From: Paraspadella gotoi
Lineage: Eukaryota; Animalia; Chaetognatha
Length of the DNA stretch: 9,737 bases
Assembly: GCA_051294375.1 (NCBI GenBank)
Contig: JBJCIZ010000790.1
Span: forward strand, 1-9,737
Reading direction: 5' to 3'
Shown here: in pieces, positions 3,013 to 9,673 of the stretch
How the letters are laid out: the number at the start of each line of letters is the position of its first letter
How positions within the stretch are numbered: the first letter of the stretch is position 1
Program-made: the position numbers and the translations under genes
Notes under the pieces: model-generated
The model's database searches: none
The model's input: the letters and a program-made list of their open reading frames with translations, nothing else
Told to the model about the DNA's origin: nothing

Positions 3013-3984
3013 GTTTGAGCAATAGGGCGGGTTAAATTTGATCCCTTTTTATCATTAGAAGTTCTGTCATATAAAATTCATTTGTCCATCATATACAGGG
3101 TAGGGATTCAAAACTTAGAAAATCCGTATCACTTCTTCTTTTTTTTACTTTATGACGCATTGTGTGTATTAAAATAAAAAAATTGAATTGAAGATACTTA
3201 ACCAGACCTTGTTGTAACTATTAATGCAATGCGATAAGCACTGTTGCAAAAACGACACCTGCCACAGCACCCAAAAGAATCAGAGCTGCTCTTCATAAAC
3301 TCTTCTGAAAGATTGACCCATAGCTCATAAACGGTTTATCCTAGCCTATCAATATTTTGGTTAAAAGTCATATGGGTGCCCCCCTTTAAAACACCCTACT
3401 TAGCAAAGTTAAAAATAATTTGATATGGATAATATAAAGCCGGAAAATCCTTCGTCAAAAATTAAAATGTTGCTGCATCTGAAATCTTCATTTTTTTCAG
3501 CTGTAAACAATAAAGCCCTTTGTTACAGCCAGAGATGCCAGACGCGATCCGGGAGGCGGACTAGAATACGCGCGGAGGCGCATGTTTTTGAGGTGGCGAA
3601 ACTTGGACTAGAGTCAAAAATTGGGGAGAAGGGAGGCGAATGCGGAGACGCAAAAAACGTTTGCGCGTTCGCCCTCTTGTGCTTTTGTTTTTATAGGCGG
3701 AAAATCAAAAAGGTTTCGCTAAATTAAAACCTTTCTTTTGTTCCAAAAATTGTTCATTCTTTCAAATTTATTTATCAAAAAGAGAATATTCTCCTAGTTC
3801 TGTTTATATTTATTTTAAATAATAAGTTGTACATAAGCATAATTTTTATATCTTTTTTTAATACATCATTCACTCAATTTATTCCTTTTTTTAAACACAA
3901 AGCATAATTAATTAGTTAATTTATTCCTATGAATAATTTAATTAATCATTTAATGGTGGACTAAAATCCACCAACCGTTCATCA

Positions 3985-4059
3985 GCGGCCATTGGTGCCG
4001 GAGGCAAAGTCATTCGCCTCCCAACCCCAAAGGTCCGGGGTTCTAGCCCGGTGGTCGTC
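3985..4059 (+). promoter_or_regulatory. tRNA-derived (Gly-like, CCC at anticodon position) Pol III internal promoter in the LTR; not a functional tRNA
   Basis: Acceptor-like stem GCGGCCA/TGGTCGT, A-box-like TGGTGCCGGAGG (3993-4004), TCGCCTCCCA resembling the tRNA-Gly anticodon arm, T-arm/B-box GGTTCTAGCCC (4039-4049) within a CCGGG/CCCGG stem. D and anticodon stems are degenerate. Confidence 0.75.
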
Positions 4060-4061
4060 TG

Positions 4062-4142
4062 GCAGTTAAGAAGGGACGGGGCCGCTTTTAAACCCGCCTG
4101 TAACATGGTGTTAAAAGGCTGATCCGAAGCTCAGGGACTGGC
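4062..4142 (+). ncRNA. Twister ribozyme-like motif (P5-type), 5' LTR copy
   Basis: Core retained: GA-CGG, TAA, CCC-GC and loop CTGA-TCCGAAGC-TCAG. P1 and P3 carry indel noise. Predicted cut near 4089/4090. Confidence 0.65.
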
Positions 4143-4197
4143 TTATATTGAACGCGTTCCTGTCATTAAGCACTTATCAATAATTACTGCTCTTCAT

Positions 4198-4210
4198 TGG
4201 TGAGCCCGAC
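4198..4210 (+). promoter_or_regulatory. Primer-binding site, tRNA-Trp-like
   Basis: TGGTGAGCCCGAC matches 12/13 nt of the tRNA-Trp PBS TGGTGACCCCGAC and lies 1 nt after the LTR's CA end. Identical in copy 2 (6375-6387, -). Confidence 0.8.
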
Positions 4211-4242
4211 TTCCCGAACACAACAAGCAACAACAACATTTT

Positions 4243-4339
4243 CAGGCGACATGCCTCAACCTGGCGATGCACTTTCTGCCACAACACATCAGGCGACATG
4301 CCTCAACTTGGTGACGAACTTTTCCCACACAACAACAAT
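4243..4339 (+). repeat. Internal ~47-bp tandem duplication with small hairpins
   Basis: CAGGCGACATGCCTCAAC at 4243 and 4290, each followed by tgg.ga.g.acttt...cacaac. AGGC/GCCT stem. Also present in copy 2. Confidence 0.8.
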
Positions 4340-4371
4340 TCACTGAGAGATTGCAACAGACTTCTCCCTAC

Positions 4372-4382
4372 GGGAGGGGGGA
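4372..4382 (+). promoter_or_regulatory. Polypurine tract
   Basis: GGGAGGGGGGA directly abuts the TG of the 3' LTR. Equivalent tract at 6203-6212 (-). Confidence 0.85.
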
Positions 4383-4620
4383 TGTATGGTGGACTAAAAT
4401 CCACAACCGTTCATCAGCGTCTGCGCATTGGTGCCGGAGGCAAGTCACATTCGCCTCCCAACCCAGGTCCGGGTTCTAGCCGGGTGGTCGTCTGGCAGTT
4501 AAGAGGGACGGGGCGCTTAACCCGCCTGTAACATGGTGTTACAGCCTGATCCGAAGCTCAGGGACTGCTTATATTGAACGGTTCTGTCATTAACACTTAT
4601 CAATAATTACTGTCTCTTCA
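4383..4620 (+). repeat. 3' LTR of family A copy 1
   Basis: TG...CA termini; contains tRNA-like head (~4417-4491) and twister-like motif (4495-4568). Confidence 0.9.
4495..4568 (+). ncRNA. Twister ribozyme (P5-type permutation), best-preserved family A copy
   Basis: P5 GCAGTT 4495-4500/GACTGC 4563-4568; P2 GG/CC; conserved GA 4507-4508; T1 CGG 4509-4511/CCG 4551-4553; P1 GGCGCT 4512-4517; U^AA 4518-4520; T2 GC 4524-4525/GC 4556-4557; P3 CTGTAACA/TGTTACAG; P4 CCTGA/TCAGG closing loop U-CCG-AA-GC. This fits the twister U-NNN-AA-GC loop and GA-NNN/UAA pattern. Confidence 0.78.
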
Positions 4621-4691
4621 CATTTATTCATAATTCTATTCTATTTATGTTATTTATTTACTTTATCATTTAAGTTATCAAATAATTTTTT

Positions 4692-5245
4692 TATCTAGCA
4701 TCATATTTTTAAACTTGCACCTTTTTTAATTTGCATTATTATTTTAACTGGCATCATTTTTTCAACTGACATAATTTTTTTAACATGCATTATTTTTTAT
4801 TATATTATTTTACAACTTGAATCATATTTTTAATTTGCATTATTTTTTTAATCTATATCATTTTTTGAATTGTTTTTATCTTGGATCATTTTTTAACTTG
4901 CATCATTTTTTAAACTAGCTTCATTTGGAACTTTTATATTTTTTTTATTTGCATTATTTTTTTAACTTGCAATCATTTTTATTTCATTTCATTTTTTTTA
5001 ATTTGCATTATTTTTGAAAATTGCATCATTTTTTTAACTTCCATTATTTTTTTGATTTATAATATTTTTTGGATTTGCATTATTTTTTAACCTACATCAT
5101 TTTTTCATTTTAAATCATTTTTTATCTCGCATAATTTTTTGAATGCATAATTTTTTAACCTATATCATTTTTCTACTTGCATCATTTTTTTCAAACTGCA
5201 TCATTTTTTAAACTTGCCTTATTTTTTTAACTTGTATTATTTTTC
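4692..5245. repeat. Minisatellite, ~19-21 bp unit (approx. TAACTTGCATCATTTTTT)
   Basis: Roughly 25 degenerate tandem copies of aa(c/t)ttgcat(c/t)attttt. Confidence 0.88.
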
Positions 5246-5929
5246 TTTTTTGTAATTTTTAAAATTTATATTACCTTTTAACTTATATGGTTTTAATTTT
5301 TATATTAAAATTTATATTATCAATTTATTTATACAAACAATTCATAAAATTGATACAAACAATATAACAATTATCCATTTGTTGTTAGTTTGTGAAAAAA
5401 TTTATTTATTAATTAATTAATATATAAAAACTAATTAATTATTGTTTTAACTAATTAATTAATTATCGCTAATGATCGTCATCAGATCTGGCATTGTTAT
5501 TCTGATTGTTGAAATTTAGCGCCTCCAGCATCCCTGGTTACAGCCATACATATTAAACCCAAGGGTATTGCCTATTCATAAATGTCAAGAAATGGAATCT
5601 CAGTACTCTATAGTAGACTGCAGCAATGGTTTTTAACACAGTAGCAAAAATACAAAGAAATATTTTTTTATTTCATGCTGCAGTATATTGCATTATGCTA
5701 TTAACTTGATATTCTATACATAGAGTCCCAACTACATTAGTTATTGTTTTCCAAGCTTACAGAGATCGCACTCAGACACACTACAGTGTGAACTTTAAAA
5801 AAAAAATTTACAGCATCTTAAAATATCTTTTAAAAATCAAGGATAGAAATAACTTCTCAAACTGCTGCAGCTTAATGGCCATAGGGTAATAAAGATAACA
5901 TGTCCCAGTAAATATTTCTACATTGAGTT

Positions 5930-6694
5930 TGAAGAGACAGTAATTATTGTTATGTGTTAGTGACGAACCGTCAATATAAAGCAGTCCCTCGCAGCTTTCG
6001 GATAACAGGGCTCTGCTAACACACAACTGTTCACAGAAGGCGGTATTTGAAGCGCCAGTAGACGAGAGAGTACCTCAGGCCTCTAACTGCCAGACGACCG
6101 ACCGGTCGTAAGAACCCGGACCCTTTGGTTGGGAGGCGAATGACTTGCCTCCGGCACAATGGCCGCTGATGAACGGTTGGTTATTTTAGTCGCACCATAC
6201 CATCCCCCCTCCACGTAGGAAGGATGTCTGTTGCGTTCTTCAGTGAATTGTTGTTGTTGTGGACAAGTTCGTCAACCAAGTTGAGGCATGTCGCCTGATG
6301 TGTTGTGGGCAGAAAGTGGCATCGCCAGTGAGGCATGTTCGCTGAAAGTGTTGTTGTTGCTGTTGTGTTCGGAAGTCGGGCTCACCAATGAAGAGACCAG
6401 ACAATTTGATTGTTATGTTGTGCAGTAAGTGATGACAGACAACCTTTTCAATATTCACCCATCGCGTACCGTCCCTGAGGCAGTTCGCGAGGTTCATGGC
6501 TGTAACACACATGTGTACAGGCTGGGTTAATGCGCCGCGCGTCCGCCTCTTAACGTGCCCCAGACACGCACCGGGCTAGCGAACCCGGACCTTTGGTCCT
6601 TGGTTGGGAGGGCGTAATGACTTGCCGTTCCGGCACCAAATGCCGCTAGAACTACCGGTGAGTGGTGGCATTTTTATGTGTCCCAGACCATTTA
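5930..6694 (-). mobile_element. Family A TRIM copy 2 (reverse orientation, noisier)
   Basis: On the minus strand: 5' LTR ~6694-6389, PBS 6387-6375, internal duplicated hairpins, PPT 6212-6203, 3' LTR 6202-5930 ending GTCTCTTCA. tRNA-like heads at ~6564-6646 and 6094-6166; twister-like regions at 6471-6558 and 5981-6090. No clear TSD. Confidence 0.87.
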
Positions 6695-8191
6695 AATATT
6701 CTTCATTTGCTCTCTCTTTAAATTTTCTCCTTTATTAAGCATAATAAAGGGTTGCTTCCAGACAATATATTCATTGGCTTCTTGGGCATGCCTAACAAAT
6801 AGAGAGCTGGATTAGTTGTCTCGCTGTATTAACACGCACTTCTTATATAGCCAATGCACGGTTTTCACCGAACCTCAGAATAACCTATTTATGTCCTATT
6901 CTTAATAAACTTCATTAATTATAATAACACTACCTGACCTGAGGAATAGCTTAAGCCCATATTTTAGGTAGTCGGTTTTATGCTGGCAAAATCCGGCGCG
7001 GAGCATCATCCACAATGTTCAAGCCAACGTTTCATACTTCTTGGTACTCACATCTATCCGTGAATATTAGAGGATCAAGGCTGACGTCATGATTGTCGTT
7101 TAGACACGACGTAGCTGAAAAGAATATAGACGAAACACTCTTACAAGACGAAAAGACATCAGTGCAATATTTGCTCTGATCATGTAAGCTTAGATGGAAT
7201 CAAATAATAAAGTACGCAGAAGTAAATATAGATTCATCTTTAGTCTATGCGGAGCCGCCGATTCAGCACCGCGCATGTACACAGAGCATGAAGGTCTATT
7301 AAGGGTTCGTCACGTGTTTCTAATTTCCTAAGTTTGATTACTACCGCTGTACTTATCCAACTATTGTAAACTATCACTCATTTTTATAACTAGTGAAGCC
7401 ACAGCTATAACATGTGAAGTATCTTAAATATTTAATGCATAGGCAAATTGGAAAAAAAGAAAATTTGTAAAAAAATTTTTTATTCTTTGAGAACGGATTC
7501 AGATAGCCCATTTGAAAAAGTATAGATGCTGGTGTTCTTCATATCTCGGATGAACTAAGTGGTACATAATTGAAAAACCCCTTAAAAATTTATCATCATC
7601 ATCATCAATACCGAGTAATTTTTATAGTTTTGTCTAATTTAACCCCATAAAAACATAAAAATTGAATTCCTTGTAAATATATTCTTTATTATTTTTTTTA
7701 AAGCTCTACCCGAATCCGCTTTTTAAAAAATTCTGAATTTGAAATATAAGATTTTCATGATTTATAGTAATATCGATAAACTTAAAATGCTTCTATGTCA
7801 TAACATACATAAAATCTTAATTTTTTTTTTTATCCCACCAGGAATGCTTTTATCCGTTATTTATATGACGAACTCTTAGTTTTGCCTTTGTTCCGCCTAC
7901 AATAATTAACAGAAGGTAACAGCTAATCAGATGATAAATGACGAAATAAATTCTTTTCCAAAATTCAATTGTGATCAAATAACACGATTGACCATACCAA
8001 ACCAATGGCTTAGCGCATATACATGTAAATCGTGCTTGCAAGGGATTAAACTGGAACTGTTACTATAGAACAAACCCAAATATCTCGATTTCTTACTATT
8101 ATGTAGATTAGTTAAAGCTTTCTTATTTATTTATAAACCATTGCTAAAATACTTTACAAATAATCGCATCAAATTTAATAAATAGAGATAT

Positions 8192-8408
8192 TGAAGAGCA
8201 GCAATATATGTCGGAATATGCTGTTAATGACAGAACCGAAATATAAGGGAGGCCGCAGTCTCCTACCTCTGGAGGCTTTGGCATCAAGGACACTGTACAT
8301 CCACCATGCTTAAGACGAGGCGGAGATTGAGAGCGCCCCGTCCCCCTTCTTACCTGCTAGGCGACCAACCAGGGGTGTAGGGAAACCCGGGACCTTTGGT
8401 TGGGAAGG
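8192..8408 (-). mobile_element. 5'-truncated family A LTR (copy 3)
   Basis: Minus strand reads cccaaccaaaggtcccgggtt...ggtcgcct...aagaagggggacggggcgc...gactgc...cggttctgtcattaac...ctgctcttca, colinear with the LTR from the anticodon arm to the CA end. Confidence 0.8.
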
Positions 8409-8433
8409 ATTCTTAGTACCAAACCGATTAGCA

Positions 8434-8506
8434 TAATCTTGTCCTTGACTAAGGTGCGAGTGAGTTGCGGTTAAGGCCTCCATGCAACACATCTCAGACA
8501 AGAATA
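8434..8506 (-). ncRNA. Degenerate twister-like motif, family B downstream copy
   Basis: Direct repeat of 8827-8889. Retains TGG-AGGCCT-TAA and P5 (TCTTGTC/GACAAGA); L4 and P4 are corrupted. Confidence 0.5.
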
Positions 8507-8826
8507 ATACACAGCTATAAACAAGGCTCTATGGCAATTAACACTTATTTCGACTCAAAAATCTCTCTCTACCGTCCTTGTTTACTTCAACTCCCATGTC
8601 AAACCTGGCCCTTCTATCCCTATCAATAAGTAGTATATGATATATTCATTATGCTAAAGCGATGTCTTTATCAATATTGAGAGTATGAAAGACACACGCC
8701 TTAAGTATCTAGAATGTCGCACGGAGAATACTATATTGTACTTCGCACTAGCATCAATATACAAAAAGCTGAGTTTTATGAAATTGGTACAAATAAAAAT
8801 ATTATCTATTCAATTAATAAATAAGC

Positions 8827-8889
8827 TATCTTGTCCCTGACTTTGGACAGGCTTTGGTGTTTTAAGGCCTCCATCACACTTAAAAGATA
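8827..8889 (-). ncRNA. Twister ribozyme (P5-type), family B
   Basis: Minus strand: TATCTT-tt-aa-GTGT-GA-TGG-AGGCCT-TAA-AAC-AC-CAAAG-CCTG-T-CCA-AA-GT-CAGG-gac-AAGATA. P5 TATCTT/AAGATA, T1 TGG/CCA, T2 AC/GT, P4 CCTG/CAGG, minimal P3, imperfect P2. Predicted cut between 8864 and 8863. Confidence 0.72.
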
Positions 8890-8972
8890 ATAACATTAAT
8901 AATAATATTCATTAATTAATCCATTAATTTACTAATTAAAACATTTATGAGTAAGCATAAATAATAAATTTT

Positions 8973-9673
8973 AAAGTCAACTTGACTTTGATTTTTTTAA
9001 TACAAACTCATTTCCACTCCTCTATTCCATCAAAACTTTATGCTGCTCAATCACACACTTTCCTACCTACACACAAAATTTCATCTCAATCTATCCATTC
9101 AATTTTAAATAATTTGAGTAATTATGAGTTGAAATTAGTAAAAAGATTCAAGTAATTGTGACTTATATTTTTTTCCATTTAAACTAATTTTCACTCGCAC
9201 GATTCCATCGAAACTTTATATCCAGGTTCGTCACACACTTTTCCACCAACACACAAAATTTCATCTCAATCTATCCATCCAATTATTATTAATTAGTGTA
9301 ATTATGGGTTAAAATTAATAAAAAGATTCAAGTAATTGTGACTTATATTTTTTTCTATTTAAACTCATTTCCACTCGCACGATTCCATCGAAACTTTATA
9401 TCCAGCTCAATCACACACTTTCCTACCCAAGTACCCATACACAAAATTTTATTCCAATGCAACCATCCAATCTAGAGTACTTGGAGTTTTTGCTAAGGGA
9501 GAACGGACTGACAGAAAGACAGACGGACGGACGGACATCATTTTTTTTTTAATAATTTATCATAATTTGATGTTCTGACATGATTTAAGTTAATGCCCGA
9601 CAAGATTGAGGGGGCGGACCGACAAAGTGAATTATAGAGTCGGAATCTGCTGATAAGCAGATCCCACTAAAAA
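8973..9673 (+). mobile_element. Helentron-associated non-autonomous element (HINE/DINE-1-like) with internal satellite
   Basis: Palindrome AAAGTCAA-c-TTGACTTT (8973-8989), ~180-bp tandem repeats, GACA/GACG microsatellite (9503-9537), subterminal AAGTGAATTATA (9625-9636), terminal hairpin with core ATCTGCT-gata-AGCAGAT (within 9638-9668), then an A5 run. The left boundary is uncertain. Confidence 0.7.
9004..9471. repeat. Tandem repeat, ~180-bp unit, about 2.6 copies
   Basis: Units start at 9004, 9181 and 9361 (aaactcatttccactc...tcacacactttcc...acacaaaatttcatctcaatctatcca...gtgacttatatttt). Confidence 0.93.

Follow-up and report, generated by a model that had tools for sequence, protein, structure and literature searches.

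Both LTRs of a mini-retrotransposon (TRIM) of about 670 bp carry a twister-like motif whose elements are predicted to form a P5-permuted twister-type fold. We consider it close to an even chance, though slightly short of it, that the fold self-cleaves and that the element replicates as a retrozyme via an RNA circle of about 430 nt. A more specific version of this proposal is advanced more tentatively: the element would be an LTR element driven by Pol III, its twisters would be coupled through a palindrome and cut only when both LTRs meet, and the resulting circle would serve as the template for reverse transcription. The element lies in a window of 9,737 nt, the whole stretch of DNA analysed here, which also holds further copies of the same family and a second, related family of twister-like motifs (Table 1).

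The element and its copies

The element is non-coding and has the parts of an LTR retrotransposon, namely two LTRs, a tRNA-Trp-type primer binding site (PBS) plus a polypurine tract (PPT), with many distinct insertion flanks. The stretch 4197-4210 agrees in 13 of 14 letters with the tRNA-Trp PBS of Gypsy-32_NVi and Helenus-2_SyJa, as given in the accessible portion of PMC10886601 (Fig S2), and the second full element carries an identical PBS sequence. Pfam searches of 27 window ORFs, 4 of them over the element family, gave no matches, and no TSD was seen around the second element at 5930-6690. A Penelope-type pseudo-LTR reading of the main element is ruled out by the PBS, the PPT and the TG...CA ends. 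In run X1 the left end of the element marks a jump in summed contig depth, about 1.6e4 before it and 2.8e6 after it, and at the right end the depth drops again, 1.4e6 giving way to 3e2. Since single long pieces have depths of 160-250, the LTRs would number roughly 10^4 by order of magnitude, depth being no copy number. Run X9, which may be an RNA run, shows flanks and long contigs resembling those of the DNA runs and is given no weight as evidence of expression.

Table 1. Positions of the element, its parts and related copies in the window
Feature	Positions	Strand	Basis or remark
5' LTR, indel-noisy	3953..4196	+	unrelated flanks before 3953 in 186, 146 and 97 contigs of three runs
3' LTR, TG...CA, 238 bp	4383..4620	+	unrelated flanks behind 4620 in 159, 153, 100 and 41 contigs of four runs
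Candidate TSD, CATT(T)	3947..3951	+	repeated at 4621-4625; 4 or 5 bp, LTR start damaged
Primer binding site, tRNA-Trp type	4198..4210	+	PBS comparison
Internal region of ~186 bp, non-coding, with CAA-rich linkers	4197..4382	+	
Polypurine tract	4372..4382	+	abuts the 3' LTR
tRNA-like unit, 5' LTR	3985..4059	+	ARAGORN -ps80, shuffle-tested descriptor
tRNA-like unit, 3' LTR	4417..4492	+	ends 3 nt before twister P5
tRNA-like unit, second element	6093-6165	-	ARAGORN -ps80
Twister-like motif, 5' LTR copy with homopolymer insertions	4062..4138	+	predicted cut near 4089/4090
P5-permuted twister-like motif, 3' LTR copy	4495..4568	+	descriptor, folding; the public contigs have it as majority allele
P1 position, palindromic hexamer GGCGCT	4512..4517	+	folding
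Second full copy (two LTRs, PBS, PPT), heavy insertion noise	5930..6690	-	
Partial LTR of the main family, heavily insertion-noisy	8190..8410	-	
Related second-family twister-like motif without P3	8815..8895	-	T1 TGG/CCA, P1 palindrome AGGCCT, different P5
More damaged second-family copy	8440..8510	-	391 nt from the 8815..8895 copy, same orientation

Judging from repeat divergence that is dominated by indels, the window looks like unpolished long-read sequence. Against the 3' LTR, the copy at 6395-6700 shows 72 inserted, 9 deleted and 8 substituted letters, the one at 8185-8420 shows 52, 4 and 11, and another window copy 43, 9 and 12; the 5' and 3' LTRs of the same element share 225 matches, with 3 substitutions and 23 gap columns. 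The 3' LTR copy at 4495-4568 is the clean copy of the family, and single-base inferences from 5900-8900 are unsafe. The sequence-only reading had taken extra G's before GA in other copies to point to a 3-bp CCC/GGG P2 in the consensus. Because the copies diverge mainly by insertions, these G's are most likely long-read errors, and this consensus was dropped: the public contigs over 4484-4626 (9159 from run X1 and 1285 from run X5) agree with the 4495-4568 copy, and neither A4504G nor any indel reaches 2% in them. No contigs on 4484-4626 came from the runs of organisms B and C, which is not proof of absence.

Some further structure is apparent in the element. At 4240-4310, between unstructured CAA linkers, a unit of about 18 nt occurs twice and forms a small GGCGACATGCC hairpin, a candidate packaging or protein-binding signal. 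A long-range stem of AACCGTTCA with TGAACGGTT (3973-3981 / 4397-4412 with 4573-4581) would bracket both the tRNA-like unit and the twister in each LTR, and a hairpin is predicted at the LTR start.

Anatomy of the twister-like motif

The core elements listed by the sequence-only reading (GA, T1, UAA, T2, P3, P4 with its loop L4, and P5) are all in register at 4495-4568. P5 (4495-4500/4563-4568) comprises 6 bp, five Watson-Crick pairs and one U.G; G4507, the general base, is followed by the conserved A4508 directly before T1, which joins C4509-G4511 to C4551-G4553 by three Watson-Crick pairs. The U/AA site consists of U4518, A4519 and A4520, where the public contigs hold no variant at 2% or more, and the cut is predicted between U4518 and A4519, with the predicted cut of the 5' LTR copy lying 429 nt upstream. 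T2 pairs G4524 and C4525 with G4556 and C4557 (two Watson-Crick pairs), P3 has eight Watson-Crick pairs (4526-4533/4537-4544) and P4 five (4545-4549/4558-4562), of which the one adjoining L4 is the A-U pair noted earlier; L4 itself reads U-CCG-AA-GC. All T1 and T2 pairs are Watson-Crick both in this copy and in the majority form of the family.

A descriptor of this element order, composed post hoc after the motif had been seen, matches the window once, at 4495-4568, and has no match among 2000 shuffled LTR sequences (dinucleotide shuffling). Scans with twister patterns gave no match in viral contigs and none in prokaryote genomes, and 15 matches in metagenomes are treated as chance, none of them having a 4-bp P4. 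A hammerhead reading of CTGATCCGAAG was ruled out by eye, there being no CUGANGA/GAAA core.

The motif departs from known twisters at P1 and P2. Only 3 nt separate UAA from T2 on the 5' strand of P2, and P2 therefore has 2 bp, as had been read from the sequence, next to either a C.A pair or a bulged A; the published twisters in the accessible part of PMC8501958 (Table 1) have 4 nt at this strand. The hexamer at the P1 position would leave a loop of just 2 nt as a hairpin; as a self-duplex it forms 6 bp at a predicted -8.3 kcal/mol. Rfam finds no twister in 4470-4600 even at E<=10, and no hammerhead either. With P2 one position short, no hairpin at P1 and no Rfam match, the motif is classed as twister-like and not as a canonical member of the twister class. 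The earlier assignment to the P5-type twisters thus stands as regards the elements on which activity depends, and fails as regards P1, P2 and recognition by Rfam; it had been silent on the palindrome with its 2-nt loop and on the tRNA-like unit 3 nt upstream.

Which elements these are is indicated by large-scale assays. Among about 1950 natural twisters, all of them P1-type or found by similarity to P1-type, a faulty P1 or P2 was tolerated and faults in the pseudoknots or catalytic positions were not (PMC11662667); saturation mutagenesis gives the same pattern, with P1 dispensable (PMC5113685). The assay-sensitive elements of the present motif (both pseudoknots, general acid and general base, and the L4 adenines) are intact, and so are all 18 sensitive positions in the majority form.

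A competing hairpin and the variation within the family

A nested competitor pairs CGGG at 4509-4512 with CCCG at 4521-4524, together with a GG/CC pairing, and buries T1, P2 and T2. This hairpin is predicted to lie 7.7 kcal/mol below the nested twister skeleton, a difference that T1, T2 and the tertiary contacts, which ViennaRNA cannot score, would have to repay. Both for the motif alone and within the LTR, the MFE structure is a four-way junction with the CGGG/CCCG hairpin, which shows GCGC in its loop. In a cofold of two copies the competitor hairpins persist and the P1 palindromes do not pair with each other, pseudoknots being beyond what the program scores. Pairing probabilities of P4 and P5 exceed 0.9 in the isolated motif, and that of P5 is just 0.06 in the fold of the whole LTR. 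The GTTAAG/CTTAAC hairpin previously put forward as the competitor has a predicted pairing probability of about 0. The region as a whole folds with a z score of -0.75 against shuffles.

The sequence-only reading had named a core no better conserved than the rest of the LTR as a ground for rejecting it, and no difference in conservation was seen: variable positions amount to 2/18 in the core, 6/56 and, in the flank, 6/52 (p=1.0), a comparison of low power because the family is young. Variants among the repeats are concentrated at CpG (6/10 against 8/116 positions, p=1e-4), and the variation within the family is mostly CpG decay; such decay in repeats accompanies an AT-rich window with 34.7% GC. 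One variant, G4553A, breaks a T1 pair and makes up 13% of the X1 depth and 2.9% of that of X5, and C4509T as its pairing partner does not reach 2%; G4524A, at a T2 position, accounts for 2.8% and 0.3%, respectively. According to the accessible text of PMC11662667, C.A mismatches are among the better tolerated ones in the T1 pseudoknot.

A second family of twister-like motifs

The related motif at 8815-8895 scores 24.8 bits against Rfam Twister-P5, below the gathering threshold of 37.6, with an E value of 0.00084 in a search of 91 nt. Comparison of the two families shows that T1 (TGG/CCA versus CGG/CCG), the palindrome (AGGCCT versus GGCGCT) and P5 all differ and yet all stay paired, whereas P3 is present in the main family only; the second family keeps the twister pairings and lacks the CGGG/CCCG pairing. 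This evidence of covariation comes from two families, the second of them known from noisy single copies. Beyond what any P1 would show, the palindrome contributes no more than its central pair in each of the two families, for which we estimate about 1 in 16 by chance. The two second-family copies flank a non-coding, AT-rich stretch and may form the terminal repeats of another small retroelement, e.g. a Penelope-like one.

The tRNA-like unit and Pol III signals

The tRNA-like unit of each LTR combines an acceptor-type stem of 7 bp with a 12-mer resembling an A box and a B box that reads GGTTC; in the 5' LTR the A-box-like stretch is at 3993-4004, the B-box-like one at 4039-4049, and the anticodon-type arm contains CCC. 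Boxes were called with the consensus strings of the A and B boxes. Under the relaxed setting -ps80, ARAGORN finds the unit in three of the four LTRs of the two full elements, which makes up three of its eight calls there, and labels one copy Gly-CCC; the anticodon arm presumably resembles that of tRNA-Gly. A post hoc descriptor of boxes and stem is matched by 2 of 5000 shuffles. The tRNA likeness is weak, the unit being missed by ARAGORN at default thresholds, and Rfam finds no tRNA in 3960-4080.

With regard to termination, about 99% and 97% of the X1 depth have other letters in place of the T4 runs at 4239 and 4320, respectively, the run at 4086 belongs to an insertion that the 3' LTR lacks, and the second element is without T4 runs. 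The common alleles hence hold no T4 run on the sense strand, which fits Pol III read-through weakly, about 1.7 such runs being the estimate for chance.

Relationship to known elements and ribozymes

By its sequence the element is of the Helenus type, because a tRNA-like unit with A and B boxes lies in the LTR, 3 nt upstream of the motif. As described in the accessible portion of PMC10886601, Helenus/TRIMp3 elements are likewise non-coding TRIMs (311-1263 bp) with such a unit in the LTR, and Helenus-2_SyJa and Helenus-2_SyUm share the tRNA-Trp PBS; the tRNA likeness is weaker in the element studied here. The same portion of that paper describes no ribozyme for Helenus, the word appearing once, in the title of a reference. 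In its sequence file (DataS1.fa), the stretch directly behind the tRNA-like unit of the wasp LTRs Helenus-2_SyJa-LTR and Helenus-2_SyUm-LTR reads, on visual inspection, as a complete type III hammerhead, with a GUC site, CUGAUGA, GAAAC, three helices and a long complementarity between loop I and loop II. A string search of the Helenus LTR consensuses in that part of the file, where line breaks can hide matches, found no twister L4 motif and no match to the present family; the sole tcccaagc match in a Helenus consensus is internal sequence and not LTR.

The closest functional parallel is with the LTR retrozymes of plants, as far as the accessible text of PMC4918200 describes them. These are also non-coding, with a PBS, a PPT, a short TSD and one motif per LTR that cuts in its middle (as predicted for the present one), and their monomer from site to site likewise carries both PBS and PPT. 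They differ in having a type III hammerhead rather than a twister-type motif (Rfam finds no hammerhead here), a tRNA-Met rather than a tRNA-Trp PBS, and a monomer of 600-1000 nt as against about 430 nt with an LTR of 238 bp. Published retrozyme circles are, moreover, highly paired in the available descriptions, whereas the present monomer has a tRNA-like head and is not predicted to be so. Lacking the type III hammerhead of the retrozymes, the element is not filed as one and at most works like an LTR retrozyme.

The type-P5 twister ribozyme is said to go back to Roth et al. in 2014. The motif shares with its Rfam family (RF02684) the element order, the double pseudoknot, the U/AA site and L4, and differs in the 3-position P2, the palindromic P1 that forms no hairpin, the A-U-closed L4 and the added P3. 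The T-variant twisters of Schistosoma, in the accessible text of PMC8501958, are similar in having a defective P1 and residing in a retrotransposon, and by eye the ends of P3 (CUGUA...GUUAC) are alike; they have the P1-type order, a cut near the 5' end and a non-LTR host element, unlike the mid-cut P5-type motif in each LTR here. Finally, Penelope-like elements and animal retrozymes have type I hammerheads that depend on dimers (PMC4209133, PMC7229834) and in which, comparably, a very small helix with a palindromic cap adjoins the cut site. There a second copy completes the helix, in a different ribozyme class and in a non-LTR tandem context; dimer dependence is known for those hammerheads and is only inferred for the present motif.

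A proposed mechanism and its alternatives

Since the common alleles have no T4 runs on the sense strand, we propose that Pol III would start at the tRNA-like unit of the 5' LTR and read through the whole element. Left to itself, either motif of the transcript is probably trapped in the CGGG/CCCG hairpin. The palindromic P1 suggests, by analogy, that cutting is dimer-dependent and tied to transcripts holding both LTRs: the palindromes of two copies, normally those of one transcript, would pair into a shared P1 of 6 bp that lets both motifs fold and then cut at U/AA. The released monomer of about 430 nt would carry the PBS and the PPT without terminal redundancy, and would be ligated through its 5'-OH end and its 2',3'-cyclic phosphate by an RtcB-type ligase. 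A circle appears to be needed because a mid-cut monomer without terminal redundancy could not otherwise yield an element with two LTRs, and the mid-cut P5 permutation would only make sense in a repeat or a circle. tRNA-Trp would prime reverse transcription around the circle, regenerating two LTRs, with enzymes from an autonomous, probably Ty3/gypsy, element. The use of a circularised monomer as template is also what has been proposed for the retrozymes of plants (PMC4918200, PMC7761336). The 429-nt monomer is no more stable than its shuffles (z +0.65 linear and +0.99 circular, computed on a noisy copy).

In a family so young and so abundant, the alternatives are cleavage that is coupled to circularisation and a motif that is silent. 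The latter possibility, which we regard as rather unlikely, has the LTR capture a twister (e.g. from the second family) that later lost its activity, leaving an ordinary Helenus TRIM with a linear RNA running from R to R. It accounts for the short P2 and the stable CGGG/CCCG hairpin as silencers, for a core that is no better conserved than its surroundings and for the amplification of a variant that breaks T1; LTR insertions were, moreover, proposed by Kojima as the origin of TRIMp3 (PMC10886601, accessible portion), and an active cutter in an LTR would be harmful unless the RNA is circularised. A mere passenger is, however, hard to square with the T1, P1 and P5 that differ between the families and still pair, P3 being found in one only, nor would it be expected to retain all 18 sensitive positions in the majority form or to share its slot with a different ribozyme class in the wasp Helenus elements (by eye). 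It is the intact sensitive core, the paired divergence of the two families and the wasp hammerhead in the same slot that lead us to favour coupling over silence.

The lack of a T4 terminator in the common form could also mean that the motif takes the place of one, with only the 3' LTR copy cutting to leave a linear Pol III RNA and no circle; the stretch from the tRNA start to the cut site would then be an R region of about 100 nt for normal LTR strand transfer. In most of the Helenus consensus LTRs looked at, by contrast, the tRNA-like unit is followed by a T run; the lack of unusual structure in the monomer also speaks for this arrangement. Nevertheless we judge it improbable: no asymmetry is evident, since the same motif stands in the same local context in both LTRs, and the palindromic P1 predicts paired cleavage.

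The predicted MFE structure allows yet another interpretation, slightly more improbable again, in which the four-way junction displays the GCGC palindrome of the CGGG/CCCG loop for dimerisation or packaging of the RNA and the likeness to twisters is ancestral. The retroviral DIS is a precedent for dimerisation through kissing loops, and this hairpin prevails in the predictions both for the motif alone and in the LTR. That L4 has kept its complementarity to T1 and T2 would be left unexplained, and the second family retains the twister pairings but not CGGG/CCCG. Lastly, a chance resemblance in a GC-rich, hairpin-rich LTR, to which the failure of Rfam, the post hoc descriptor and the region z score of -0.75 might point, is very improbable given 0/2000 shuffles, the absence (by eye) of a 4-bp P4 from the 15 metagenome matches and the Rfam Twister-P5 match (E 0.00084) to the homologous second-family motif.

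Implications

Twisters are abundant in eukaryote genomes, and the only role that we found for them in print is in non-LTR elements; a search of the full-text literature outside subscription journals and Repbase notes returned no twister in an LTR and no ribozyme in Helenus. If the proposed retrozyme-like cycle is true, twisters would have a second role, the formation of circles, so far described only for a different ribozyme in plants, and the retrozyme strategy would have evolved more than once with unrelated ribozymes. These would be the first dimer-dependent twister and, unless the host is itself a flowering plant, the first LTR retrozymes outside flowering plants. The element would also illustrate how a TRIM driven by Pol III and devoid of a terminator could make replicable RNA, would point to a class of twisters with palindromic P1 and short P2 that Rfam misses, and would be a natural counterpart of the engineered twister-based expression of circular RNA mentioned in the accessible part of PMC7229834. 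Together with the hammerhead of the wasp Helenus-2 elements, it would define a 'ribozyme slot' that follows the tRNA head in the LTRs of TRIMs and whose ribozymes are interchangeable.

Other repeats in the window

A dispersed repeat family at 200-2350 combines (GA)n microsatellites with shared non-microsatellite blocks, e.g. 330-387/1891-1948. Downstream of the element, 4685-5244 is an AT-rich tandem array of about 31 copies of an 18-bp unit. Towards the right end, a 180-bp tandem repeat (8983-9427, 2.5 copies) is followed at about 9505-9540 by GACAGACGGACGGACGGAC, which we take to resemble Helentron-associated elements.
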